DNA of 64,000 bases from an uncultured Weeksellaceae bacterium. GTDB taxonomy: Bacteria; Bacteroidota; Bacteroidia; Flavobacteriales_D; UBA2798. Within the stretch, counting starts at the first letter, position 1, and every line of letters starts with the position of its first letter. Shown one piece after another: positions 4,072 to 29,253 of the stretch. The DNA lies in assembly GCA_964460845.1 (NCBI GenBank), contig CAYWRZ010000004.1, forward strand, positions 2,920 through 66,919, in the 5' to 3' direction. The notes beneath the pieces were generated by a model, which was given only the letters and a program-made list of their open reading frames with translations, made no database searches and had not been told where the DNA came from. The translations under genes were made by a program, and so were the position numbers.

Positions 4072-5009
4072 GCTTGTTCGAGAATTTTCAGGGCCAAATG
4101 GCGGTCCGTTTCCAGTCGGGATTTCAGTTCGGCTATGCCCTCAAACTTTTTTTCGTCTCTTATTCGTCCGATAAATTCCAGGCGCAACTCCTGTTCGTAA
4201 ATATCTCCTTCAAAATCAAATAAATGCACTTCTACAGAAGAAGTAGGTGATTTTTCTGCGTTTACCGTAGGTCTTTTCCCGATGTTGAGCATACCGCCTA
4301 ATTGCCGGTCACCCAGTCGGGCGGTAACGGCATATACACCGTCGGCCGGAATCAGCTTATACGGATCATTTACGCGAAGGTTGGCGGTGGGAAATCCGAG
4401 TTGCCGACCTAATTGCTTGCCTTGTACTACAGTGCCCGTCAGTCGATAAGCGTAACCGAGGTAATTGCGGGCGGTTTCTACGTCGCCGGTATGGAGCGCG
4501 TGTCGTATTTTGGTGGAGCTTACTTTCACATCGTCCACTTCTTGCGGCGGAATTTCCTCTACGCCAAACCCGTAAAGAGGAGCCAGTTCTCTCAGTTCGG
4601 CGATAGAGCCTTCGCGGTTGCGGCCGAAATGGTGGTCGTAGCCGATCACAAGCCTGTCGGTATGTAGCTGATTCACAATCACGTCGCGCACAAACTCTAT
4701 GGCTGTAAGCCTTGAAAACTCTCGGTTAAAGGGAAAAACCACCAGGTGGTCAATACCGCTTTCGGAAAGCAATTCGACTTTTTCGGCCTGAGTGGTAAGC
4801 AGCTTCAGGTTGGTATCGTCGGGAAACAGCACCGTCCGCGGATGCGGATGGAAGGTAAAAAGCACGGTTTCGCCTCCGGTTTGCGTGGCTATTTCGCGCA
4901 GGCGGCTAATGATTTTACGGTGGCCGATATGCACCCCGTCGAACGTGCCTGTGGTGAGTACCGGCTGCTTTACCTGCCGGAATGTATCAAGGTGGTTATG
5001 AACCTTCAC
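4068..5009 (-). CDS. ribF: Bifunctional riboflavin kinase / FAD synthetase
   Basis: GTFDGVHIGH, FHPHP, GYDHHFG, VSSTKIR, GRQLGFPTAN, NIGKRPT, EVHLFDF. GTG start at 5009 inferred. Confidence 0.97.
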   Translation of the reverse strand: MKVHNHLDTFRQVKQPVLTTGTFDGVHIGHRKIISRLREIATQTGGETVLFTFHPHPRTVLFPDDTNLKLLTTQAEKVELLSESGIDHLVVFPFNREFSRLTAIEFVRDVIVNQLHTDRLVIGYDHHFGRNREGSIAELRELAPLYGFGVEEIPPQEVDDVKVSSTKIRHALHTGDVETARNYLGYAYRLTGTVVQGKQLGRQLGFPTANLRVNDPYKLIPADGVYAVTARLGDRQLGGMLNIGKRPTVNAEKSPTSSVEVHLFDFEGDIYEQELRLEFIGRIRDEKKFEGIAELKSRLETDRHLALKILEQA

Positions 5010-16681: not shown

Positions 16682-18625
16682 ATGCAGGAGTTTAAAGCCG
16701 GCCCCCTGCTGCAACAGATCGACATTCCTGCCGATTTGCGCAGTAAAATCAAAGAAGAAGAGCTGCCTCAGGTGTGCCAGGAATTGCGCGATTACATTAT
16801 CGATGTGGTTTCTCATATCGGCAATTCGCATTTTGGTGCCAGCTTAGGTGTGGTCGAGCTTACCGTAGCCCTGCATTATGCCTTTGATACCCCCCGCGAT
16901 CAGCTCGTATGGGATGTAGGCCATCAGGCTTACGGGCATAAAATTCTTACCGGGCGCAGAGAAGCATTTCCCACCAATCGCACTTACAAAGGGCTGAGCG
17001 GTTTTCCTAAACGCAGTGAAAGCGAATACGATACTTTCGGTGTAGGCCATTCTTCCACCTCCATTTCGGCGGCGGTAGGCATGGCCGTAGCCAATAAGCA
17101 GCTCGGTAAGCACGACGTGCAGCATATCGCTGTGATCGGCGACGGAGCGATGACCGCAGGGCTTGCTTTCGAAGGACTCAACCACGGAGGTGTGACCAAT
17201 ACCAATTTGCTGGTGGTGCTTAACGACAACTGCATGTCGATCGATCCGAATGTAGGTGCCCTTAAAGAATACCTGACCGACATTACCACCTCGCATACCT
17301 ACAACCGGATTAAGGATGAGGTATGGAACCTGCTTGGTAAAATCAGCAAATTCGGCCCCAACGCACAGGCTATTGCCCATAAGATCAGTGACGGGATCAA
17401 GACGGCCCTGCTGCGCCAAAGCAACCTTTTCGAATCGCTCAATTTTAGGTATTTCGGTCCGGTCGATGGACACGATGTAATTAACCTGGCTCGTATTTTC
17501 AACGATCTTAAAGATATTCCCGGCCCTAAAATTTTACACTGTGTGACCGTAAAAGGCAAGGGGTATAAATATTCGGAAGAGGGCAACCAGACCTTGTGGC
17601 ATTCTCCCGGTGTGTTCAACAAGGCTACCGGCGAGATCATCAAAGTGATTCCCCAGTCGCCACAACCGCCCAAATACCAGGATGTGTTCGGTCATACCAT
17701 TGTAGAATTGGCCGAAAAGAATCCCAAAGTGATGGGAGTGACTCCCGCCATGCCTTCGGGCTGCTCGCTTAATATTATGATGAAAGCCATGCCCGATCGC
17801 GCTATTGATGTGGGTATTGCGGAGCAGCATGCCGTTACTTTTTCGGCAGGACTGGCTACTCAGGGGATGGTGCCTTTCTGTAATATCTATTCTTCTTTCA
17901 TGCAAAGAGCCTATGATCAGGTGGTACACGATGTGGCTTTGCAGAAGCTGCATGTGGTATTTTGCCTCGATCGCGGCGGACTCGTAGGAGCCGATGGCGC
18001 TACACACCACGGTGCTTTCGATTTGGCTTATATGCGCTCCATCCCGAATATGGTAGTGGCTTCTCCGATGAACGAAGAAGAGCTGCGTAACCTGATGTAC
18101 ACCGCTCAGCTTGAGGAGAATGCGGGACCTTTTTCTATCCGTTATCCCCGTGGCGAAGGTGTAATGACCAACTGGAAAACCCCTTTGCGTAAAATCAGGG
18201 TAGGTACCGGGCGTAAAGTGCGTAACGGCGAACACATGGCTATACTGGCCATAGGGCCTGTTGGGAATCTTGCCATGGAGGCTTGTCGCCTTTTAGAGGA
18301 AGAGGGGATCGATGTGGCGTTTTATGATTTGCGTTTTGCCAAGCCCATAGACGAAACTCTTCTGCATGAGGTGTTTACAAGGTTTAAGCAAGTGATTACC
18401 GTCGAAGACGGATGCCTTCAGGGCGGCGTGGGCAGCGCGGTACTCGAATTTATGGTCGATAACGGCTATTCGGCGCGGGTGCGCAGGCTGGGTATTCCGG
18501 ATCGTTTTGTGGATCACGGCACACAGGCACAGCTTTACGCCGAGTGTGGTTACGACGTGCCGGCCATTGTGGCGGCTGCGCGTGAGCTTTGGGGCAACCG
18601 CAAGTCTATTACCGCCGCCGGATAA
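16682..18625 (+). CDS. dxs: 1-deoxy-D-xylulose-5-phosphate synthase
   Basis: HFGASLG, WDVGHQAY, GHSSTSIS, GDGAMTAG, GIAEQHA, YSSFMQRAYDQ, DRGGLVGADGATH. Confidence 0.99.
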   Translation: MQEFKAGPLLQQIDIPADLRSKIKEEELPQVCQELRDYIIDVVSHIGNSHFGASLGVVELTVALHYAFDTPRDQLVWDVGHQAYGHKILTGRREAFPTNRTYKGLSGFPKRSESEYDTFGVGHSSTSISAAVGMAVANKQLGKHDVQHIAVIGDGAMTAGLAFEGLNHGGVTNTNLLVVLNDNCMSIDPNVGALKEYLTDITTSHTYNRIKDEVWNLLGKISKFGPNAQAIAHKISDGIKTALLRQSNLFESLNFRYFGPVDGHDVINLARIFNDLKDIPGPKILHCVTVKGKGYKYSEEGNQTLWHSPGVFNKATGEIIKVIPQSPQPPKYQDVFGHTIVELAEKNPKVMGVTPAMPSGCSLNIMMKAMPDRAIDVGIAEQHAVTFSAGLATQGMVPFCNIYSSFMQRAYDQVVHDVALQKLHVVFCLDRGGLVGADGATHHGAFDLAYMRSIPNMVVASPMNEEELRNLMYTAQLEENAGPFSIRYPRGEGVMTNWKTPLRKIRVGTGRKVRNGEHMAILAIGPVGNLAMEACRLLEEEGIDVAFYDLRFAKPIDETLLHEVFTRFKQVITVEDGCLQGGVGSAVLEFMVDNGYSARVRRLGIPDRFVDHGTQAQLYAECGYDVPAIVAAARELWGNRKSITAAG

Positions 18626-18682
18626 TTTCCGTGTTTCGCTTTTATTTCCAACTTTTGCGTTTCTCCTTCAAACAAAGTGAGT

Positions 18683-19282
18683 ATGAAACGCCTGATTTTC
18701 CTTTTCTTCTTTTTCGTAGTGCTGATTCCTTGTGTGCAGGCTCAGGAGCCTGTAGTCACTTTTGAGCATAAGCGTAGCGGGAAACGTGTAGCGCTTTTTA
18801 TGCCCGAAAGTAAAATGTGGATCAAAACCACCGACAAGCGCAGGTTATCCGGTTATGTGTTCGACTACCGCGATTCGGTATTTCATCTTCTTAGCTATGC
18901 AGAACATTCGGGGGCGATGGCAGAAAGTAAGAAGCTGGAATGGAAAACGATACAGGCTTCTGACAGCTTAACTTCCGTACAAAAGCAGACCGCTTACCTG
19001 ACGATTTATTATACCGATACCCTTAGGGTTCACTTGTCGGCTATTCGCAAAATCGGGGTGGAGAACAGGTTTATGAAAAAGCACCGTAAGCTGGTCAATG
19101 CGACCGGGATTACAGGGCTGGCGGTGCTGGGTGCTACCGGTATCACCTCGTATATCGATCCCGATGCCGAGACCTTGCTTATTGCTTCCGGCACTACGGG
19201 GGCGGCTCTTTGCGTGGCCTATGCCGTGATGGCCCGGCAGAAAAAAATCAATCTTCGTCGTCCGATTTGGAGCGTGTATTAA
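18683..19282 (+). CDS. Hypothetical exported/membrane protein
   Basis: Signal peptide and two C-terminal hydrophobic helices. Confidence 0.7.
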   Translation: MKRLIFLFFFFVVLIPCVQAQEPVVTFEHKRSGKRVALFMPESKMWIKTTDKRRLSGYVFDYRDSVFHLLSYAEHSGAMAESKKLEWKTIQASDSLTSVQKQTAYLTIYYTDTLRVHLSAIRKIGVENRFMKKHRKLVNATGITGLAVLGATGITSYIDPDAETLLIASGTTGAALCVAYAVMARQKKINLRRPIWSVY

Positions 19283-19603: not shown

Positions 19604-21151
19604 ATGAAACCCAGTGATGATTTGTTTTGCCTTATAAAATCCCTTTCGCGTTCCGAAAAAGGGTATTTCCGGAAATATGCTTCTGTGCATGTCAAAGGAG
19701 AACAGAATACCTACCAGAAATTATTTGATGTGATCAGCAACCAGGAGCATTTTGACGAAGAGGAGATGAAACGGCAGTTAGGGCAAACGCCCCTGCTGAA
19801 TTACCTGCCTACTGCCAAACATCAGCTCTATAATCTCGTGCTGAAAACCCTGCGTGCGTATTACGAGGAAAATTCGATAGACTGTCAGGTGCGTGATTTT
19901 TTGCAGGATATCGAATTTCTTTATTCCAAAGCGCTTTTTCGACAGTGCCGTAAGCTTATTCAGAAAGTAAAAGCTATCTGCACCGAAAACGAGCGGCTGT
20001 TTGCCCTGCTGGAAGTGTGTCGTTGGGAAATAAGGGTTTGGATAGGTGAGCTGGAAAATTCCGAAGCCTCTTTTTCCAAGCTGGAAGACGTGGTGGCTCA
20101 CCAAAAAGAGATCCTGGCCAAGATCAGCTATCTCGTGGAGCTTGAAAACATTTTCAACAAAGCCTATTTGGTGCTGGGTGCTTCCGGTAAGCCGCGCAGC
20201 GTGTCTGAGCAGGCGCAGTTTTTGGAAATCCTCCAACACCCCCTGTTACAGGACGAGTCGCCGCTGCATTCGCTCGAAACACGTTTTAACTGGTACAACA
20301 TCAAAGGTGTCGAAGCGTATGTCAATTCTGACTGGAAAGCGGCGTTTACCTACATGACCAAAATTGTCCGGCTCTTTGAAGAAAATCCCAAAAGCATAAG
20401 CCGTTTTCCGGCCAAGTATTTTTCGGCGCTGGTAAATCGTTGTCAGATGGGCGTTTTTCTCGGGCGTAAAAAAGACGTCATGCAGGCATTGCATAAAATA
20501 AGACAGGCGCCCGTGCAGCATACCTGCTTCCGTTCGGAAAATTACCAGGTAAAAGTATTTCTCGCCCTGTACGGAATGGAGCTGCACTTCTATCAGCGCA
20601 CCGGCGAATTTGGGCGCATCATGTCGCTGGTCGATGAGGTGGAAATTATACTGCCCCGTTATGTGCACAAAGCGGGAGTGAGGCAATTGCTTAATTTTTA
20701 CCTGCGCTTATCTATCGTATGCTTTTGCGCCGGGCAATATAAAAAAGCGCTTCACTGGCTCAACAAAGTGCATAACGGGCGTTGTGAAGTATATCAGCAC
20801 CGCGAGTTTGTGGCGTTTGTAAACGTGTATAACCTGCTTGTACACTATGAGCTTCAAAACTTCGACCTGCTTATCTATACGCTGCGTGCTACCGAGAGGC
20901 GGCTTAAATCCAGAAAGCTCTTTTTCCGTTTTGAACAGGCGCTTATCGAATATTTTAAAACCACGCTCCGGAAAAACGGTTCCGATTTACGCAGCTCGGC
21001 CTTGAAACAGCTTGCGCATACGCTTAAAGAAATTAAAACGGATCCTTATGAGTCGAGACCGCTCGAATACTTCGATATCGCACTTTGGGCCGAAAGTAAA
21101 TACCGGGGCATACCGCTTCAAAAAATCATCTCGCAGGGTACTAAAACCTGA
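19604..21151 (+). CDS. Uncharacterised alpha-helical/TPR-like protein, paralog A
   Basis: MKPSDDLFCLIKSLSRSEKGYF... through FDIALWAESK; aligns end to end by eye with 26654-28216. ATG at 19604. Confidence 0.85.
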   Translation: MKPSDDLFCLIKSLSRSEKGYFRKYASVHVKGEQNTYQKLFDVISNQEHFDEEEMKRQLGQTPLLNYLPTAKHQLYNLVLKTLRAYYEENSIDCQVRDFLQDIEFLYSKALFRQCRKLIQKVKAICTENERLFALLEVCRWEIRVWIGELENSEASFSKLEDVVAHQKEILAKISYLVELENIFNKAYLVLGASGKPRSVSEQAQFLEILQHPLLQDESPLHSLETRFNWYNIKGVEAYVNSDWKAAFTYMTKIVRLFEENPKSISRFPAKYFSALVNRCQMGVFLGRKKDVMQALHKIRQAPVQHTCFRSENYQVKVFLALYGMELHFYQRTGEFGRIMSLVDEVEIILPRYVHKAGVRQLLNFYLRLSIVCFCAGQYKKALHWLNKVHNGRCEVYQHREFVAFVNVYNLLVHYELQNFDLLIYTLRATERRLKSRKLFFRFEQALIEYFKTTLRKNGSDLRSSALKQLAHTLKEIKTDPYESRPLEYFDIALWAESKYRGIPLQKIISQGTKT

Positions 21152-21393
21152 GTGCCGCGCGTGCTTTTCAGTCGCCTTTGTCAATAAAAATCCATCGCCG
21201 GCATCTTCCGCTACAGTAGAGAAGCATCGCAGAAAAACTGTAAAATTGCCACATGAGATAAGGGTTTAGACTATACTTTACCCGACTTTGCAGCGCAAAG
21301 TTTCCCGGTTTAGTATGCGGCACAGAATGCGAAAGGAAAGGCGTTTTATCTTAAAAAAATGGTAAATTAGCTCGTTACCAAACTCTCTGCTCC

Positions 21394-22173
21394 ATGTCGA
21401 AGCTCTCTGCAATTATTGTGGACGATGAAGAACTTGCACGCGAAAATTTGAGCATGCTCCTGCAAGAATATTGCCCCGAGATAGAGGTGATCGCACTTGC
21501 CGACGGAGTGGCTCAGGGCAGAAAAGTGATCCATACGCTCAAGCCCCGCATTGTATTTCTCGATATTCGTATGCCCTCCGGAGCCGAAGGCTTTGATTTG
21601 CTTGACTCGCTCCGCGAAGAGAAATTTTTGGTGGTGTTTGTAACCGCATTTAAAGACTATGCCGTACAGGCTTTTAACGCCAATGCCGTTCACTACCTGC
21701 TTAAACCGATTGATATAGAGGATCTAAAAGCAGCGGTACGTAAGCTCGTCGAAGCCGATCGCGTCTTTGAAGCACATCCCGAAAATTTTTCCAATTATGT
21801 AAGCACGCTCAAGCAATTGTCTGACAGCCTGCTTAATAACCGCTACTCAGGAAGGCTGAGCATCAGCTATTCCAAAGGCATCAAGATTATTCAGGACGAC
21901 AGTATCGCTTATGTAGAGGCCGATGGTAACTGCAGTCTGCTTCATTTCCGCGACGGTACACGCTACCTCGATACGCGTACGTTGGGCCTTTACGAAGAGA
22001 TTCTTAACCCCGCCAAATTTTTCCGGATCCATAAATCCTATCTTATCAATCTCAACGAGCTGGTAGAGTATGTGAGCGAAGACGGATATTTCGCCCTGCT
22101 GCGCGACGGCAAGCGCCTGCCTGTGGCACGTAACCGGGTAAGCGATTTCACCCAACGTATCAAAGCACTTTAA
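21394..22173 (+). CDS. LytTR-family response regulator 1
   Basis: IIVDDE, FLDIRMP, FVTAF, HYLLKP receiver; C-terminal YVEADGNC...FFRIHKSYLINL...LPVAR LytTR domain. Confidence 0.93.
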   Translation: MSKLSAIIVDDEELARENLSMLLQEYCPEIEVIALADGVAQGRKVIHTLKPRIVFLDIRMPSGAEGFDLLDSLREEKFLVVFVTAFKDYAVQAFNANAVHYLLKPIDIEDLKAAVRKLVEADRVFEAHPENFSNYVSTLKQLSDSLLNNRYSGRLSISYSKGIKIIQDDSIAYVEADGNCSLLHFRDGTRYLDTRTLGLYEEILNPAKFFRIHKSYLINLNELVEYVSEDGYFALLRDGKRLPVARNRVSDFTQRIKAL

Positions 22174-22278
22174 ACGGAAGTCTTTACCGTTTACTCAAAC
22201 ACATCTACACCTCACTCATTCGCATTCCGAAAACCACAGACTTCTTCTTAAATTAAGGTAAACTTAATACCTGTGGCT

Positions 22279-23004
22279 ATGAAGATTCGCTCTATTGTGG
22301 TTGATGACGAGTACTATTGCCGGAACAACCTGAAGATGATTATCGACGATTTTTGCCCCGATGTCGAAGTGGTGGGTATGGCTGATTCGGCCGAATCGGC
22401 CCGTGTACTGATTAGGCAATATCAGCCTGATTTGGTTTTTCTGGACATCAAAATGCCCCGTGAAGACGGATTCTCTCTGCTTGATTCTATTCCCCAGCGC
22501 GATTTTTCGGTAGTATTTACCACCGCGCACAGCGAATATGCGCTTAAAGCGTTTAAAGCCGACGCGGTCGATTACATCGAAAAGCCGATCAATATCGACG
22601 ATCTCCGCAATGCCATTAAAAAGGTAACCAAGTTTTACCAGCCGACCGAAAAACCCCTTCCGGCGACCAAAGAAAACGATCGCATTTCGCTGACCACGCG
22701 CGACGGTTTTCTGATGGTGAAAAACGAAGAGATCATTCACCTCGAAGCCAGCGATAATTACACCATGATTTACATGACCGATAACCGCAAGTTCCTCAGT
22801 TGTAAAAACATAAAGGTGTATGAAGAGTCGCTCAACAAATCCTCTTTTTTCCGGATTCACAAGTCGCATATCGTAAATATTGTAAATCACCTCAAAGGAT
22901 TTACCCGCACTGAAGGAAATATTGCTATTTTGAGTAACGGAAAGCAGGTGCCTGTGGCCCGGAGAAAGCTGACCGAATTTTTACAACGCATTAATACCAT
23001 TTGA
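22279..23004 (+). CDS. LytTR-family response regulator 2
   Basis: IVVDDE, FLDIKMP, FTTAH, DYIEKP; LEASDNYT...FFRIHKSHIVN...VPVAR. Confidence 0.93.
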   Translation: MKIRSIVVDDEYYCRNNLKMIIDDFCPDVEVVGMADSAESARVLIRQYQPDLVFLDIKMPREDGFSLLDSIPQRDFSVVFTTAHSEYALKAFKADAVDYIEKPINIDDLRNAIKKVTKFYQPTEKPLPATKENDRISLTTRDGFLMVKNEEIIHLEASDNYTMIYMTDNRKFLSCKNIKVYEESLNKSSFFRIHKSHIVNIVNHLKGFTRTEGNIAILSNGKQVPVARRKLTEFLQRINTI

Positions 23005-26000
23005 TGAACCTGATGTTACGCGTAAATAAAAGCCTGATTCTTTCAGGCTTTTTTTTCATACAGTCTTTTCTGCTGCAAGCTCAGCAATATACGTTCATCA
23101 ATTATTCGACCGAGCAGGGATTGGCACAATCGCAGGTTTCGGCCATGTGTCAGGATAAAAAAGGCTACCTCTGGTTTGCTACTTTCGGCGGAGTAAGCCG
23201 TTTCGACGGAATCAGCTTTACCAGCTACAGCAAAAGCGACGGACTGGTCGAGAATCAGGTCTATACCATCTTTGAAGATTCACAGCACCGGCTTTGGTTT
23301 GGCGCCATTGGCGGATATAGCCGTTTTGACGGGGAAACCTTCTATTCCGAAAAATTTCCAGCGCCCTACCTCAACCTGAATATTACCTCCATTTGTGAAG
23401 ATCGCGCCGGAAGAATATGGCTGGCTTTCGATGGAGCCGGACTGATTTGCCTTTTGCCCGACGGAACCCAACTTTTTTACGGGCTTGCGCAGGGACTCGA
23501 CCCTTACGTACGCAGCGTATTCAGCGATTCGAAAGGCAGGCTTTGGGCCGGCACACGCGGTGGACTTTTTCTCTTCGACAACGGCAGGTTTGCGCTTTTC
23601 CCCTTGAACGGCGACCCCGATCGCAACGTGAGCTTCATCACCGAAGATCAACGGCAACGTTTGTGGATAGCGACCTACGACGAAGGGGTTTTTATGGAGC
23701 TCGAAAAAGAAGGATTCCGGAATTATTATTCCGATCATGGCCTTATCAGCGATTGGGTTCGCACCATTTTTGTAGATGCCGATAACGCGATTTGGTTTGG
23801 CACCAAAACGGGAGTGAGTAAGCTCGATCACGGAGAGTTTCAGAATTTCGGTTATGCGCAGGGTCTTATCAATACCAATATTAAAGTAATCGGGCAGGAC
23901 TCTGAAGGAAATATGTGGCTGGGTACCGATGGAAAAGGAGTGCTCAAATTTGCCGGAGAGGCATTTACCACTTATACTTCGGTCGATGGTTTAAGCAGCG
24001 ATTTTGTGATGTCGGTTGCCGAAGACCTGTACGGAAATCTTTGGTTTGCAACCTATGGCGAGGGAATTTGCCGTTTTGACGGCAAACGCTTTACCGTGTT
24101 CAAAGACGATGCCGGATTGGCCAATAATACGGCCTGGACTTGTATAGCCGATAAGCAGAACCGTATATGGGTAGGTACTTCCAACGGCTTGTCGATGTAC
24201 GACGGCCGGCAGTTTTTTTCCTATTTCGAAGAAGACGGATTGCTGTCCAATAAAATTACTTCCCTTTTTTCCGATACCGATGGATCGTTGTGGATTGGGA
24301 ATAAAGACGGACTATCGCACCTGAAAAACAACAAGTTTATCAATTATACCGCTACCGACGGACTCACCGGTGGCAATGTGCGAAGCATTCATAAAGATCG
24401 GAAGGGCGTGCTTTGGCTCGGCACCTCCGACGGATTATACAGCTTCGACGGCAGCCGTTTTGTCAACTACAAGCACGAGTCGCATGCCAACGATAATACG
24501 GTGTATTCTATCGCCGAAGACCGTTACGGCAATCTTTGGATAGGTTCCAAAAGCGGACTTTTTTGTTTTCGTAACCAGCTTTTTTATAAGCTTTCTTTAG
24601 GACAGGGCATCACGGCCAACACAGTGAATTTTCTCATTTTTGAAAACGATCGCTTGTGGGTAGGCACCAACAACAGTCTTTATGAGGTAAATGTGATGCA
24701 CTACCTCGAAAAAGGGGAGGTCGAATACCGTAACTATTCCAAGCTCGAAGGGGTACCCGGACTGGAGAGCAACATGAACGCGGCCTTTCGGGATACAAAG
24801 GGCAACTTGTGGTTTGGTACCGACGGCGGACTTGTACGTTTTAATCCGCAGAAGCGCCGCCATGCTTTTAATCCCGTAGAGCCTTACGTACACATTACCG
24901 ATATACGCCTGTTTTTTGAACCGGTGAAATGGGATCAGTACGCCAAAGAGAAGGATCCTGCCACAGGTCTTGCGCGCGATTTGGTGGTGCCGTATAAAAA
25001 AAATCACTTCACTTTTTATTATACCGGCATCTGTCATACCAATCCCAACAAAGTAAAATACCGTTTCAAGCTCGAAGGCTTTGACCAGGACTGGTCGCCC
25101 GAAACCGATGCACGTTTTGCCACCTATTCCAACCTGCCCAGCGGTCATTATACCTTTAAAGTGATGGCCTGTAACAACTCCGGAATATGGACTTCCGTAC
25201 CGGCCGAATTCAGCTTTTCCATTACGCCGCCTTTTTGGTTTACCTGGTGGTTTTACATCTTGTGCGCCGCCTTTGCATTTACCCTCGGCTACCTGATCTC
25301 GCGTTGGAGAATGGCGGTTATCAGGCGTAAAAACGAGCGTACGCAGCTTATTTATCAGTCTAAACTACTCAGCCTGGAGCAGCAAACGCTGAACGCGAGC
25401 ATGAACCGGCATTTTATTTTTAATGCGCTCAATTCTATTCAATACTATATCAACAAGCAGGATAAGCTGGAGGCCAACCGCTACCTGACCAGTTTTGCGA
25501 AGCTGATCCGTAAAAACCTCGACAGTTCGGTGTCGGGTAATTTGGTGAATCTTTCGGAAGAAATGGAAAGGCTGGAACTCTATCTCTCGCTCGAAAATAT
25601 GCGGTTTAAGAGCAAATTTTCTTATGCCATAGAGGTGGACGAGGAAATTGATACCGAATCGGTGAAGATTCCTCCTATGCTTTTGCAGCCCTATGTCGAA
25701 AACAGTATTTGGCATGGAATATTACCCATGGAACGTCCGGGGCATATCCGGATAAAGGTCGAGCCTTTTGAGCAGGATGCAGTTAGGATTACCATTACCG
25801 ACGACGGTATAGGAATAGATACGAGCCTGAAAAACAAGTCAAAAAATGGGGTTCAGCACGTTTCAAGGGGTATTGAGATTACAAGTGGAAGACTGGCGAT
25901 TCTCAAAAAAATGACCAATGAAAACCTCATTATCACAGGGCCTTACGAGATGCGCAGCGAAAACGGCGAAGTGAAAGGCACCGAAGTAGTGCTGGTGATT

Positions 26001-26054
26001 CCGCAGACCGAGTTTTTCAGAAAGGCAAATTTTTCCGAAAAAAACTATGAATAA
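23004..26054 (+). CDS. LytS-type sensor histidine kinase with periplasmic beta-propeller (Reg_prop) repeats and Y_Y_Y domain
   Basis: Signal peptide, many D..G.LW.GT..G repeats, YRFKLEGFD...YSNLPSGHYTFKV, TM helix, MNRHFIFNALN H-box, IPPMLLQPYVENSIWHG, DDGIG, RGIEIT. Confidence 0.93.
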   Translation: MNLMLRVNKSLILSGFFFIQSFLLQAQQYTFINYSTEQGLAQSQVSAMCQDKKGYLWFATFGGVSRFDGISFTSYSKSDGLVENQVYTIFEDSQHRLWFGAIGGYSRFDGETFYSEKFPAPYLNLNITSICEDRAGRIWLAFDGAGLICLLPDGTQLFYGLAQGLDPYVRSVFSDSKGRLWAGTRGGLFLFDNGRFALFPLNGDPDRNVSFITEDQRQRLWIATYDEGVFMELEKEGFRNYYSDHGLISDWVRTIFVDADNAIWFGTKTGVSKLDHGEFQNFGYAQGLINTNIKVIGQDSEGNMWLGTDGKGVLKFAGEAFTTYTSVDGLSSDFVMSVAEDLYGNLWFATYGEGICRFDGKRFTVFKDDAGLANNTAWTCIADKQNRIWVGTSNGLSMYDGRQFFSYFEEDGLLSNKITSLFSDTDGSLWIGNKDGLSHLKNNKFINYTATDGLTGGNVRSIHKDRKGVLWLGTSDGLYSFDGSRFVNYKHESHANDNTVYSIAEDRYGNLWIGSKSGLFCFRNQLFYKLSLGQGITANTVNFLIFENDRLWVGTNNSLYEVNVMHYLEKGEVEYRNYSKLEGVPGLESNMNAAFRDTKGNLWFGTDGGLVRFNPQKRRHAFNPVEPYVHITDIRLFFEPVKWDQYAKEKDPATGLARDLVVPYKKNHFTFYYTGICHTNPNKVKYRFKLEGFDQDWSPETDARFATYSNLPSGHYTFKVMACNNSGIWTSVPAEFSFSITPPFWFTWWFYILCAAFAFTLGYLISRWRMAVIRRKNERTQLIYQSKLLSLEQQTLNASMNRHFIFNALNSIQYYINKQDKLEANRYLTSFAKLIRKNLDSSVSGNLVNLSEEMERLELYLSLENMRFKSKFSYAIEVDEEIDTESVKIPPMLLQPYVENSIWHGILPMERPGHIRIKVEPFEQDAVRITITDDGIGIDTSLKNKSKNGVQHVSRGIEITSGRLAILKKMTNENLIITGPYEMRSENGEVKGTEVVLVIPQTEFFRKANFSEKNYE

Positions 26055-26067
26055 AGAAACTTTTTCC

Positions 26068-26075
26068 TAAATTTG
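26068..26075 (+). promoter_or_regulatory. sigmaA -7 element for the small lipoprotein gene
   Basis: TAAATTTG between the kinase stop codon and the ATG at 26133. Confidence 0.6.
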
Positions 26076-26132
26076 AAGTACTATTGGGTGTGGAATGGCG
26101 TTTTGAAAGCTGAACCAAGAGAGGAAGAAGTT

Positions 26133-26387
26133 ATGAAAAAGAGTTTGTATAGTCTTGTGCTTGTTTCGTCGCTCGTTTTTTTGGGTGCGTGCAGTAAAGA
26201 ATATATGGGTCCTTTGGATGAGACAGGGTCGCCTGTTCACACCAAAGCTGCATCTACAGACGGTCCTACTATAACGACCGGTGGTGACAGTGGTGGCATC
26301 ACAGACGGCGGTCACGACTCCGATTACGATACTACCAATAAGAATAAGAGAAAGCAACAGTCTCCCGGAACCCCTCCTGGAAACTGA
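26133..26387 (+). CDS. Small (84 aa) low-complexity lipoprotein
   Basis: MKKSLYSLVLVSSLVFLGA-C lipoprotein signal; mature part rich in G/T/D with a KNKRK tail; own promoter element and terminator. Confidence 0.85.
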   Translation: MKKSLYSLVLVSSLVFLGACSKEYMGPLDETGSPVHTKAASTDGPTITTGGDSGGITDGGHDSDYDTTNKNKRKQQSPGTPPGN

Positions 26388-26414
26388 ACAATAACCCCGC
26401 TTTACGGGGATAGG

Positions 26415-26448
26415 TCCCTCCGGTAAACCCGGAGGGATTTTTATTTTA
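26415..26448 (+). terminator. Intrinsic terminator after the small lipoprotein
   Basis: Stem TCCCTCCGG-taaac-CCGGAGGGA followed by TTTTTATTTT. Confidence 0.85.
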
Positions 26449-26653
26449 TACCAGTCTAAGCCCGCTTTTTACTTCCTCCCAAACCGGCGTTGCACTTGAT
26501 CCTTATCGCCCCGTTTTGTAAATTTAAAAGAGAAGGAAAAGCCTTTTTTTCGCCCGTATTCGCGCTTCGTCCCCTTATGTGCACGCTGCGAGATATAGGA
26601 ATCGGTCGCGGAAAAACGATTTTTTAACCGGTCAAAAAATTAAATAATTATAC

Positions 26654-28216
26654 ATGTCTAACGTGGCTTCCGATCAGTTGTTCCGTTTAATTCGATCGCT
26701 TAGCAAGCCTGAAAAACGCTATTTCAAGCTGTACAGCTCCAGGCATATTCTCGGAGAAGTCAATAACTACCAGTTGCTTTTCGATGCCATCGATAAGATG
26801 AAAGAATATGACGAGTCTCGCCTGCATAAGAAGTTTGCCGGACAGGCTTTTCTCCGTCAGCTTTCTATCGCCAAACGCCGGCTTTATGATCATATTCTGT
26901 ATAGCCTCGATGCGTACCATGCGCACGGCTCGATCGATTCGGAGCTGCGAAGACTGGTAAATTGTGCCCTTATTCTGTACAAAAGATCCTTGTACAGCCA
27001 GGCCGCCAAGCTGCTCAAAAGTGCGCGTAAGCTGGCCGAACGCTACGACAAGCATACCATTTTGCTCGACATTTCACTGCTCGAAAAAAAGCTGATCGAA
27101 ACCGGCAATTATACCCGTATCGACGAAGAAGATTTGCTCCAAATTCAGGAACGCGATCGGCTTACGCTCGAAAAAATTTCTAACCTCAACGAGTTTTGGC
27201 ACATCAAAAGCCGCATGTTTTATATCCTCAATCGCCGTGGAAAAGCGCGTAATCAGGAAGAGCTCAGCAATTTCAAAGCGATTATCGACAATGTGCTGCT
27301 GCGCAGCGAAGACAAAGCGCTTTATCCCAAAACTAAATACCTCTACCATCACATTTACAGCGCGTATTATTTTGGTACCGGCGATTACAGCGCCAGCTTT
27401 CAGCACCTCAAAAAAAACGTAGCGCTGGTCGAAAGTGAAGTGGCGGCTTTTAAGGAAGAACCCAACGTATATTTTTCGTTGCTGACCAACATTATCTACA
27501 TCGCCAGCCGCTTACGCCGTTATCCGGAAGTGTTTTTTTACCTTGAGAAATTACGTGCCCTGCCCGAAAAGCTGAGCCTGCAACGCAATGAAGATCTCGA
27601 TATCAAACTTTTCTCCAGCACTTATAGTCTCGAACTTACCCTTTACGCGTTTACCGGCGATTTTGAAAAAGGCATTGCACTGGTGCCTTTTATCCGCGAA
27701 GGACTTGCGCTTTACGGCGAAAAAATAAATACCCTGCGCCGGGCGTATCTTTATTTTAGCATAGCAATTCTCTACCTCGGCGAAAAACACTATTCGGAAG
27801 CCCTGAATTGGATCAACCTGCTGCTTGCTACGCAAGGACTCGATAAAACGGAAGATATCTATTGTTTTGCCCAGCTCGTAAACCTGATTATTCACCTCGA
27901 ATTGGGCAGCCAGCGCCTTTTGCCTTACACGCTCAAATCTACACAGCGTTATCTTTCTTCCCGCAATCGTGTATATAAGTTCGAGTCGGCGATGCTCAAC
28001 TTTGTCAATAAAATTATCCGCACCCGCGACCGCCGCGAAGAGCAGAAAGTATATGCGCTGTTGTTGGAAGAGTTACGTCCGCTCGAACAAGAAACGTTCG
28101 AGAAATCAGCGTTCGAGCATTTCGATTTTGTGGCCTGGGCCGAGAGTAAAGTTACCGGAAAGCCGTTTCGCGACATTATCCGTGAGCGGGCTTCGGCAGC
28201 AGAAGGCCGAGCTTAA
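26654..28216 (+). CDS. Uncharacterised alpha-helical/TPR-like protein, paralog B
   Basis: ASDQLFRLIRSLSKPEKRYF... through FDFVAWAESK; paralog of 19604-21151. Confidence 0.88.
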   Translation: MSNVASDQLFRLIRSLSKPEKRYFKLYSSRHILGEVNNYQLLFDAIDKMKEYDESRLHKKFAGQAFLRQLSIAKRRLYDHILYSLDAYHAHGSIDSELRRLVNCALILYKRSLYSQAAKLLKSARKLAERYDKHTILLDISLLEKKLIETGNYTRIDEEDLLQIQERDRLTLEKISNLNEFWHIKSRMFYILNRRGKARNQEELSNFKAIIDNVLLRSEDKALYPKTKYLYHHIYSAYYFGTGDYSASFQHLKKNVALVESEVAAFKEEPNVYFSLLTNIIYIASRLRRYPEVFFYLEKLRALPEKLSLQRNEDLDIKLFSSTYSLELTLYAFTGDFEKGIALVPFIREGLALYGEKINTLRRAYLYFSIAILYLGEKHYSEALNWINLLLATQGLDKTEDIYCFAQLVNLIIHLELGSQRLLPYTLKSTQRYLSSRNRVYKFESAMLNFVNKIIRTRDRREEQKVYALLLEELRPLEQETFEKSAFEHFDFVAWAESKVTGKPFRDIIRERASAAEGRA

Positions 28217-29253
28217 AAATGCTTCCAGCCTTGTGCAGTCAGTGCGATAGATTGCCCCGTAGGAGTAACTAATTGTGGGCTGGCCCCTGCTTCGGTAATA
28301 TGGCCGATTACCGTAAAATGCGGGTTATTTCGGATTTTTTCATAATCCTGCGCCTTTATAGTAAACAGCAGCTCGTAATCTTCGCCTCCGTTAAGCGCGC
28401 AGGTAACCGGTTCGAGGTTAAATTCTTCGGCCGTTGAAATTACAGAAGGGTCTATCGGAATTTTTTCGATGTACAGGTTACAGCCCCGTCCCGACGCTTT
28501 GCAAAGATGAAGCACTTCGCTGGCCAGCCCGTCAGAAATATCGATCAGGGAAGTAGGTCGTACATCGAGACTTTCTAGTAGTTCGAGCACGTCTTTCCGG
28601 GCTTCGGGTTTAAGCTGCCGCTCCAGGATGTAATCGTGTCCGCCCAGGTCGGGTTGAATGGCGGGATTGGTTTTAAATACTTCTTTTTCCCGTTCCAACA
28701 CCTGTAGTCCGAGGTAGGCACCGCCCAAATCGCCCGATACCACCAGCAGATCTTTTTCGCCCGCGCCGCTGCGATAGACCACCTTGTCTTTATCGGCATG
28801 ACCGATGGCGGTGATGGAGAGGATGAGTCCGCCCGCAGAGCTGCTCGTGTCTCCGCCCACCAAATCCACCCCGTATTTGGAGCAGGCCAGCAGCATACCG
28901 GCATAAAGCTCCTCTACGGCTTCGAGCGAAAAACGGTTCGACAATCCCAGCGCTACGGTAACTTGCGAAGCGATACCGTTCATGGCATAAATATCAGACA
29001 GGTTCACCACAATAGCTTTATAGCCGAGGTGGCGAAGCGGACAATACGATAAATCGAAATGAATACCTTCGATGAGCATATCGGTGCTCACCAGTGTTAC
29101 TTTTCCATTGCCGTTGTCGATTACGGCGGCATCATCTCCTATTCCCTTTAGGGTCGAAGGTTGCGAAGGAGTGATAGAAGCGGATAAATGCCCGATCAGC
29201 CCGAATTCACCGAGCTGATCGAGTTCCGTGCGGTGTTGCTTGTTTTCAAACAT
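28213..29253 (-). CDS. thiL: Thiamine-monophosphate kinase
   Basis: LGEFGLI, GIGDDAA, STDMLIEGIHF, NLSDIYAM, GGDTS, DISDGLASE, GGEDYELLFT. Confidence 0.97.
   Translation of the reverse strand: MFENKQHRTELDQLGEFGLIGHLSASITPSQPSTLKGIGDDAAVIDNGNGKVTLVSTDMLIEGIHFDLSYCPLRHLGYKAIVVNLSDIYAMNGIASQVTVALGLSNRFSLEAVEELYAGMLLACSKYGVDLVGGDTSSSAGGLILSITAIGHADKDKVVYRSGAGEKDLLVVSGDLGGAYLGLQVLEREKEVFKTNPAIQPDLGGHDYILERQLKPEARKDVLELLESLDVRPTSLIDISDGLASEVLHLCKASGRGCNLYIEKIPIDPSVISTAEEFNLEPVTCALNGGEDYELLFTIKAQDYEKIRNNPHFTVIGHITEAGASPQLVTPTGQSIALTAQGWKHF

Follow-up and report, generated by a model that had tools for sequence, protein, structure and literature searches.

A candidate lipoprotein-assisted, envelope-sensing two-component system in uncultured Bacteroidota

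We analyzed a 64,000-nucleotide stretch of DNA from an uncultured Weeksellaceae bacterium (assembly GCA_964460845.1, contig CAYWRZ010000004.1, positions 2,920 to 66,919), hereafter the window. Between dxs and thiL, it encodes a sensor histidine kinase, two LytTR response regulators (RR1 and RR2), an 84-residue lipoprotein, and two helical proteins (A and B). From gene content, domain architecture, conservation, co-occurrence, and the selection acting on the lipoprotein, we propose that the kinase, regulators, and lipoprotein form a lipoprotein-assisted ("three-component") envelope-sensing two-component system, a reading to which we assign a probability of roughly one half. The original prediction, made from the sequence of the window alone, described six co-oriented genes between the dxs region and thiL as a candidate peptide-signaling locus. 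The six open reading frames (ORFs) are all present as described, but the locus resembles an envelope sensor assisted by a lipoprotein more than a pheromone circuit of the Gram-positive style. The six genes and the predicted signals flanking the lipoprotein gene are as follows:

19604–21151, + strand: paralogue A, 515 amino acids, predicted cytoplasmic and all-helical, RusR/BT2802 family (NF058569 match)
21394–22173, + strand: RR1, response regulator with receiver (REC) and LytTR domains (Pfam, receiver residues)
22273–23004, + strand: RR2, response regulator with REC and LytTR domains (Pfam, receiver residues)
23001–26054, + strand: sensor histidine kinase, 1017 amino acids (Pfam, PDB 4A2L match)
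26068–26075, + strand: TAAATTTG, predicted Bacteroidota-type −7 promoter box of the lipoprotein gene (TAnnTTTG match)
26133–26387, + strand: mini-lipoprotein, 84 amino acids (lipobox, gene position, ratio of nonsynonymous to synonymous substitution rates [dN/dS])
26412–26450, + strand: predicted intrinsic terminator after the lipoprotein gene (stem and T-run)
26654–28216, + strand: paralogue B, 520 amino acids, predicted RusR/BT2802-family protein resembling tetratricopeptide repeat (TPR) proteins (NF058569 match)

Linkage of the kinase and lipoprotein genes

The lipoprotein family is invisible to homology search and was detected by gene position alone. A word-based search of 5.8 billion proteins with the lipoprotein retrieved only the query itself, and no match was found in Pfam, NCBIfam, or PADLOC. 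Lipoprotein ORFs were called with a custom pattern filter and inspected by eye. The sampled genomes are related, such that the counts reported here do not represent independent events.

A lipoprotein gene lies directly behind the kinase gene in 45 of the 46 genomes that carry this kinase lineage, spanning approximately 20 families and more than one order. These 46 comprise the genome of the window and sets of 13, 8, 15, and 9 genomes. The set of 13 derives from 18 relatives found through B and shares the order RR1–RR2–kinase–gap–B–thiL; in every one of the 13 gaps, an ORF of 76 to 130 amino acids encodes a signal peptide and lipobox together with an acidic body of low complexity. Within a collection of 80 B loci from named genomes, a lipoprotein ORF is present in all 14 loci with the co-oriented arrangement, eight of which are additional genomes. 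A search from RR2, which is not biased by B, recovered a lipoprotein ORF behind the kinase in 15 of 15 relatives with a kinase beside RR2; 11 of these have no RusR-family gene (the family of A and B, discussed below) after the lipoprotein, and one contig ends too early. Lastly, a class-wide sample of 251 genomes contained RR2 orthologues in four more families, with the lipoprotein at eight of the nine loci fetched.

The conserved core is thus one or two LytTR regulators, a propeller/Y_Y_Y kinase, and an acidic lipoprotein. The original prediction had offered conservation of gene order as a check on the locus as a whole. The order holds for the core (45/46), and the longer block of regulator, kinase, lipoprotein, B, and thiL recurs in several families and outside the order; the helical genes are not obligatory, and A is limited to two genera. 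In one family outside the order (f57), the complete block is retained at a B identity of 34–37%. In 16 of 28 module-carrying relatives and in five of the nine genomes of the class-wide search, the next gene after the lipoprotein belongs to the RusR family. Kinase and lipoprotein occur in the absence of B in at least 11 genomes, and the lipoprotein is absent from 66 of the 80 B loci. B loci without this kinase lineage yielded no such lipoprotein.

Sequence and selection of the mini-lipoprotein

The lipoprotein of the window has the lipobox LGAC with Cys20, a lysine at position +3, a disordered acidic body, the motif GITDGGHDSDYD, and a basic tail; its C-terminal motif peptide is exemplified by GGITDGGHDSDYD. 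Across module carriers, the lipoprotein ranges from 63 to 130 amino acids, and the C-terminal motif follows the consensus [IV]-[TSN]-D-x3-[DG]-x-[DE], usually with the basic tail next. Variants include ITDPNNDPD in Crocinitomicaceae and ISDDGDD in f57. Most lipoproteins carry one to four copies of the motif, with two to four in Parvicellaceae and Lishizhenia. A family-specific segment of about a dozen residues after the lipid-bearing cysteine is likewise conserved. Among four close pairs, dN/dS is 0.17–0.36, and substitutions occur only in its central part, leaving the post-cysteine segment and the C-terminal motif invariant. The lipoprotein gene is real and under purifying selection.

Net charge varies widely, from −3 for the lipoprotein of the window to as low as −34 among orthologues with repeated acidic motifs. 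By eye, these repeats are reminiscent of the calcium-binding DxDxDG/TSP3 repeat. This candidate was rejected given that neither TSP_3 nor any other Pfam model matched, even in multi-repeat orthologues, and that the spacing is not conserved.

The lipoprotein gene begins 78 bp after the kinase stop codon, and the distance is comparably short in the relatives examined. The promoter element of its own that the original prediction assigned to this gene was recovered as TAAATTTG, 65 nucleotides upstream of the start codon and the only TAnnTTTG sequence on the + strand between 16,629 and 29,550. Of 14 genomes, 11 have a TAnnTTTG box 21–89 nucleotides ahead of the lipoprotein start codon. The terminator also stands, with a 12-bp stem (26412–26440, seven G-C pairs) followed by a T-run. 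Separately, the three closest genomes share a direct repeat, GAAA[AC]WTTT with 30-bp spacing, just upstream of the lipoprotein −7 box (~26010–26066 in the window; L025 and L028 in the relatives). The upstream copy sits in the last codons of the kinase gene, where coding constraint may explain its conservation, and we make no claim that the repeat is a LytTR box.

Sensor kinase and response regulators

RR1 and RR2 are complete REC–LytTR proteins (Pfam E values of 1e-15 to 1e-23; LytTR, PF04397, E = 1.6e-15 and 6.7e-18). They are paralogues with 37% identity, and the receiver residues DD/D/T/K are intact in both. The best NCBIfam match of each is BtsR (E ~1e-37), below the cut-off of that model. 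RR2 orthologues share 45–83% identity within the order and beyond. The kinase comprises an N-terminal signal or anchor, 11 Reg_prop repeats and a Y_Y_Y domain, a single internal transmembrane helix (residues 748–766), and the His_kinase (PF06580) and HATPase_c domains, with the H-box NRHFIFNALN containing His804. The predicted periplasmic region, a double propeller with Y_Y_Y, spans approximately residues 28–747 (~720 amino acids). Against PDB sequences, this sensor matched BT4663 (4A2L) at E = 1e-68, with further matches down to 2e-34 that included 3V9F and 3OTT.

This architecture joins features of two known groups. The Reg_prop double propeller and Y_Y_Y domain are shared with the hybrid sensors of Bacteroides (BT4663, PDB 4A2L/4A2M; 3V9F; 3OTT/3VA6). 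In those hybrids, however, the receiver and AraC output are fused to the sensor, whereas the kinase studied here has a LytS-type PF06580 core and separate LytTR regulators, with no polysaccharide utilization locus adjoining its own locus. Conversely, the PF06580–HATPase_c core and the REC–LytTR regulators are those of LytS/LytTR systems such as BtsS/BtsR (YehU/YehT), YpdA/YpdB, and LytSR. Here, the 5TM-Lyt sensor of such systems is replaced by the 720-residue periplasmic domain (no 5TM-Lyt Pfam match), and the locus has two regulators and a dedicated lipoprotein.

Upstream of RR1, the block AAAAAAATGGTAAATT[AC]G (21350–21370) is conserved in four aligned genomes at 25–35 nucleotides from the RR1 start. 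It includes a candidate promoter box:

21363–21370, + strand: TAAATTAG, near-consensus −7 box with one mismatch, within the conserved block AAAAAAATGGTAAATT

The block AAAAAAATGGTAAATT with TAAATTAG is probably the promoter of the regulator operon. Elsewhere in the same genome, two contigs gave near-identical scores to the kinase query (C10:14541–17135 and C3:190299–192893) and likewise to RR2 (C10:98612–99085 and C3:274370–274843). These paired matches suggest a duplicated segment or assembly redundancy.

A proposed model of lipoprotein-assisted sensing

Three features suggest that the lipoprotein most likely acts as an extracytoplasmic partner of the kinase: linkage that is strictly one-to-one, short motifs conserved within sequence that otherwise varies freely, and the periplasmic sensor. 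From these patterns, we infer every physical interaction in the model that follows, along with the location of the lipoprotein, the signal, and the regulon. The kinase would read an extracytoplasmic cue through its double-propeller/Y_Y_Y domain; homologous domains in the Bacteroides hybrid sensors bind oligosaccharides. Outside the cytoplasm, the mini-lipoprotein would serve the kinase as a helper or co-sensor or else as a tethered ligand. It may make contact through two conserved parts, the post-anchor region and the C-terminal [IV]-[TSN]-D-acidic motif together with the basic tail. Output would pass through RR1 and RR2, whose likely targets include the promoter of the lipoprotein gene and the promoter region that separates RR1 from a divergent micro-ORF (see below). 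The cytoplasmic, TPR-like proteins A and B would not be obligatory members, and B would probably serve as a co-regulator or target.

The closest parallel is the QseE/QseG/QseF system of Enterobacteriaceae, with NlpE–CpxA and RcsF–Rcs as looser ones. QseG is an outer-membrane lipoprotein that is encoded inside qseEGF and that binds and activates QseE via its periplasmic part (PMC6075780, PMC12691602). The shared feature is a small lipoprotein encoded with a two-component system, a linkage that is just as strict here (45 of 46 genomes). The systems also differ: the lipoprotein studied here is disordered and acidic with an N-terminus like that of surface-exported proteins, the kinase combines a propeller sensor with a LytS-type core, and the regulators are of the LytTR type rather than sigma-54 activators.

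Several observations weigh against the proposed role of the lipoprotein and against a link between B and the kinase. No similarity of the lipoprotein to QseG, NlpE, or RcsF was found with Pfam or NCBIfam models, and one genome (L146) carries the kinase lineage with no lipoprotein ORF downstream, the sole exception among the 46. B stands alone in 54 of its 80 loci, such that its association with the kinase may be one of synteny only. The lysine at +3 and the acidic residues that often occupy +4 and +5 resemble a surface-export signal, and an outward-facing lipoprotein would make no contact with a periplasmic sensor unless threaded through the membrane or cleaved. Furthermore, a strong promoter and terminator of its own suit a regulated product as well as a helper.

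The last two points also bear on the alternative that the lipoprotein is the main regulated product of the system, namely an abundant, disordered, acidic lipoprotein that would alter surface charge, cation binding, or adhesion and have no role in sensing. The dedicated TAnnTTTG box with its strong terminator, the net charge of as much as −34, and the repeated acidic motifs would all fit such a product. So would the residues following the lipidated cysteine. In Capnocytophaga, the surface-export signal is QKDDE or K-(D/E)2 (PMC5080379), and we scored K-(D/E)2 or Q-A-(D/E)2 at +3 to +5. Lysine occupies +3 in ~95% of lipoprotein orthologues and the full K-(D/E)2 is present in ~40%, with the lipoprotein of the window reading C-S-K-E-Y (K-E-Y only). 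A charge brush, however, would need neither an invariant motif with a fixed aromatic residue (D-[YFW]-D in family f1) nor constancy of the post-cysteine segment, and the net charge of the lipoprotein of the window is just −3. Strict one-to-one ties to a single kinase lineage are also more usual for partners than for members of a regulon. We consider a surface product with no sensing role unlikely, though deserving of attention, and retain the lipoprotein-assisted sensor as the preferred reading.

The helical proteins A and B

The two ~520-residue, all-helical paralogues described in the original prediction were borne out: A and B align collinearly over their full length (29% identity, E = 4e-70), and neither has a transmembrane helix. 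They are not, however, an unnamed family, as both match NCBIfam model NF058569 ("BT2802 family ribose utilization protein," BT2802/RusR). Residues 1–508 of A align to positions 1–501 of the 502-position model (E = 4e-48, 164.5 bits), and residues 6–508 of B align to positions 4–501 (E = 4e-67, 227.4 bits). The curated cut-off of the model is 550 bits. None of the four family members in the genome of the window exceeds it, and relatives encode up to ~16 copies. As judged by these scores, A and B are distant members of the RusR/BT2802 family and not RusR orthologues.

RusR provides the only functional precedent for the family. Deletion of rusR (BT2802) in B. thetaiotaomicron abolished growth on ribose and left ~10% of rus induction (bioRxiv 10.1101/574913), and a transposon screen and a transcriptome-module study agree with this role (PMC8121099; PMC12596196). 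RusR is thus genetically required to induce its adjacent genes. A and B resemble it in their end-to-end family match, length, and all-helical cytoplasmic character, yet at 164 and 227 bits they fall far under the 550-bit cut-off. The neighborhoods also differ. No ribokinase, SusC/D, or permease gene lies near A or B, whose neighbors are dxs, a membrane protein gene, the two-component system, and thiL. A paralogue on contig 23 of the same genome is flanked by unrelated genes, none recognizable as belonging to ribose utilization.

An AlphaFold2 model of B (mean predicted local distance difference test score [pLDDT] of 84) is an all-helical solenoid. In a Foldseek search, Rap, NprR, LGN, APC/C, and CNOT10 were alike in similarity (E ~1e-3, TM-score 0.34–0.46), and the predicted likeness to Rap and NprR is accordingly no more specific than TPR solenoids in general. 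Nothing significant emerged when PDB sequences were searched by profile. The conserved N-terminal domain of the RusR family was considered as a possible helix-turn-helix (HTH) domain and rejected: a separate model of B residues 1–95 (pLDDT 82) had no significant PDB match, the best being at E = 3.2. This model did not confirm a published remark on DNA-binding motifs in BT2802 (bioRxiv 10.1101/574913).

The two paralogues have different histories. B has orthologues at 44–70% identity in many metagenome-assembled genomes (MAGs) of Flavobacteriales, whereas A is restricted to its own genus and one sister genus (g3), and in 5.8 billion proteins its closest relative shares 32% identity. The genes at the A position in two relatives (G002 and G011) are 27–35% identical, in contrast to 61–87% for their neighbors:

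L025, 2349–3923: RusR-family gene at the A position
L027, 2888–4462: RusR-family gene at the A position

Likewise, between two species of the sister genus, the A-position genes are 35% identical, compared with 70–87% for dxs, the regulators, the kinase, B, and thiL. Such divergence could stem from selection that is relaxed or diversifying, or from another paralogue having replaced the gene at this position. From these identities, A is a recent, rapidly diverging, lineage-specific paralogue. Fast evolution of A also prompted consideration of a defense system, which was rejected given that PADLOC returned no match for A, B, the lipoprotein, or the 201-residue membrane protein upstream of A.

Association of B with thiL and with kinase systems

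B adjoins thiL, usually in convergent orientation, in most of the Flavobacteriales loci examined (L043–L122) and in the family outside the order, with or without a kinase system. Five loci have thiL downstream of B in the same orientation. B is an ancestral neighbor of thiL, and kinase systems of this kind often, but not always, lie beside it. The co-oriented arrangement of the window is seen in 14 of the 80 B loci, a kinase–regulator pair wedged between B and thiL in six, and a pair divergent from B in another six. In a maximum-likelihood tree, the kinases of the wedged and divergent arrangements form a clade apart from the co-oriented ones (100/98 versus 100/99). The former clade groups with two paralogues from the genome of the window (98/96), although the long branches of these paralogues urge caution. 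The separate clades beside B indicate that two kinase lineages came to adjoin it. Inversion of one and the same operon, considered as an origin of the wedged and divergent arrangements, was rejected on the basis of this separate placement, subject to the same caution over long branches.

These arrangements speak to a further explanation, in which A and B are unconnected with the kinase system, share with it only inherited synteny in a stable housekeeping region (dxs to thiL–suf), and regulate unrelated genes as RusR-like proteins. The retention of B beside thiL regardless of the kinase system fits this explanation. The conservation of thiL, a housekeeping gene, in the same block does so as well, since synteny there does not by itself imply function. 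Five of the 54 loci with B alone were inspected, and the other neighbors, including the upstream genes, vary by locus and look unrelated and housekeeping-like as judged by N-terminal sequences. The kinase–lipoprotein module, in turn, persists without B in several lineages. In genus g4, the module is present with no B orthologue; in genus g5, the module is intact, and B is reduced to a C-terminal remnant of ~60 amino acids with stop codons, in an unrelated context elsewhere:

L150 (G004), 4098–4283: remnant of B
L151 (G008), 688–831: remnant of B

On the other hand, the propeller-kinase/LytTR pairs found beside B come from two paralogous lineages and are arranged in three ways. Such a pair is adjacent in 26 of 80 B loci, where the approximately five copies in the genome of the window would predict only a few percent within 10 kb. 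The block from regulator to thiL also survives outside the order at 34–37% B identity. On balance, we regard mere synteny as rather unlikely, and favor a lipoprotein-assisted sensor to which B is facultatively linked as a probable co-regulator or target.

A micro-ORF and possible peptide signaling

Between A and RR1 lies a seventh gene, a short conserved reading frame, divergent from RR1, that was absent from the initial ORF list:

21168–21254, − strand: micro-ORF of 28 codons, MWQ...RRWIFIDKGD (C-terminal motif conservation)

Nine genomes from four families have its C-terminal motif, W[ILV]F.D[KR](G)(N/D), in the corresponding position, with the ORF divergent from the first regulator gene. 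Codon changes within the motif are synonymous or conservative and fall at wobble positions (ATT/TTA/TTG/ATA/GTA, GAC/GAT, and GGC/GGG/GGA/GGT). The motif occurs twice in a six-frame translation of the whole genome, one occurrence being this ORF. A variant with a signal-peptide-like N-terminus is located 1–3 kb upstream of B in three loci without a kinase system (L052, L053, and L055). The micro-ORF was not found in most other loci examined. A general link to B was rejected, as only ~5 of the 80 B loci have a micro-ORF nearby.

The original prediction held that the locus carries the parts list of two peptide quorum-sensing architectures, one in which a kinase and LytTR regulator are paired with a small peptide (Agr, ComCDE) and one in which a cytoplasmic TPR receptor is paired with such a peptide (RRNPP). 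All of the systems named are from Firmicutes. Translated to this locus, a C-terminal fragment of the lipoprotein or the WIFxDKG micro-peptide would be sensed by the kinase or by A or B, following the models of Phr/Rap, SHP/Rgg, or AgrD/AgrC. There are grounds for such a reading: LytTR regulators are the usual output of Firmicutes peptide systems, Rap and NprR are among the best structural matches of the B model, and the micro-ORF beside A, with its conserved aromatic C-terminus and its signal-peptide-like form upstream of B elsewhere, resembles shp and comS. The lipoprotein (42–44% identity) and A (27–35%) also evolve faster than their neighbors (61–87%), as is common in ligand–receptor pairs, although disordered proteins diverge quickly even without a role as ligands.

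Several defining features of both architectures were nevertheless looked for and not found. The defining feature shared with Agr and ComCDE is the LytTR response regulator. Their receptor kinases have six or seven transmembrane helices, whereas the kinase studied here is not a polytopic peptide receptor: it has one internal transmembrane helix, an N-terminal signal or anchor, and a large periplasmic propeller domain of 720 residues. The cluster contains no processing or export gene, with no ORF for AgrB or a ComAB-type C39 ABC transporter between dxs and thiL. In a published survey that covered selected quorum-sensing pathways of the two-component type, Agr and Com fall outside Bacteroidetes (PMC8895600). 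The likeness to RRNPP systems (Rap–Phr, NprR–NprX, and PlcR–PapR) is a TPR-like solenoid and a small secreted product in one cluster, and thus remains at the level of a parts list. LGN and APC subunits match the solenoid of B equally well, and its N-terminal domain lacks the HTH match expected from PlcR, NprR, and PrgX. In RRNPP systems, the peptide gene travels with the receptor, whereas the lipoprotein gene travels with the kinase and not with A or B. This linkage excludes the lipoprotein as a general ligand for RRNPP-like receptors. The micro-ORF, for its part, is missing from ~75 of the 80 B loci and from most other module loci. Peptide signaling of a Gram-positive type thus appears improbable here.

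A circuit peculiar to Bacteroidota is about equally improbable. In such a circuit, the kinase would read a released or presented motif of the lipoprotein, and the RusR-family TPR proteins would read the W-I-F-x-D-K-G product. If true, the RusR family would be the Bacteroidota counterpart of the RRNPP receptors.

Flanking genes and taxonomic distribution

The locus is bordered by the following genes:

16682–18625: dxs (NCBIfam equivalog model TIGR00204, 743 bits)
18677–19282: gene for a 201-residue membrane protein, between dxs and A
28213–29253: thiL, convergent with the locus (NCBIfam equivalog model TIGR01379, 301 bits)

The 201-residue protein has a signal peptide and a C-terminal transmembrane helix. 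It had no family match and is retained at 32% identity in one relative (G001).

B orthologues occur almost exclusively in uncultured Flavobacteriales or "Bacteroidia" MAGs (UBA2798-like, Parvicellaceae, Crocinitomicaceae, and Cryomorphaceae). The sole cultured species with the locus is Lishizhenia tianjinensis (CGMCC 1.7005), in which the gene order is RR–kinase–lipoprotein–B–thiL (locus L121). Consistent with the original prediction, which knew of no characterization of this arrangement, none was found in the published literature, and a search for work on LytTR/propeller kinases in Flavobacteria returned nothing relevant.

Implications

To our knowledge, Bacteroidota two-component systems other than gut polysaccharide sensors are almost unstudied. 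We found no published description of an accessory lipoprotein for such systems, and the mini-lipoprotein provides a concrete candidate partner. Its presence in a cultured carrier, Lishizhenia tianjinensis, renders the system open to experiment. For the RusR family, whose function rests on a single genetic study so far, the B-type copies near LytTR systems offer a second context in which to explore function.

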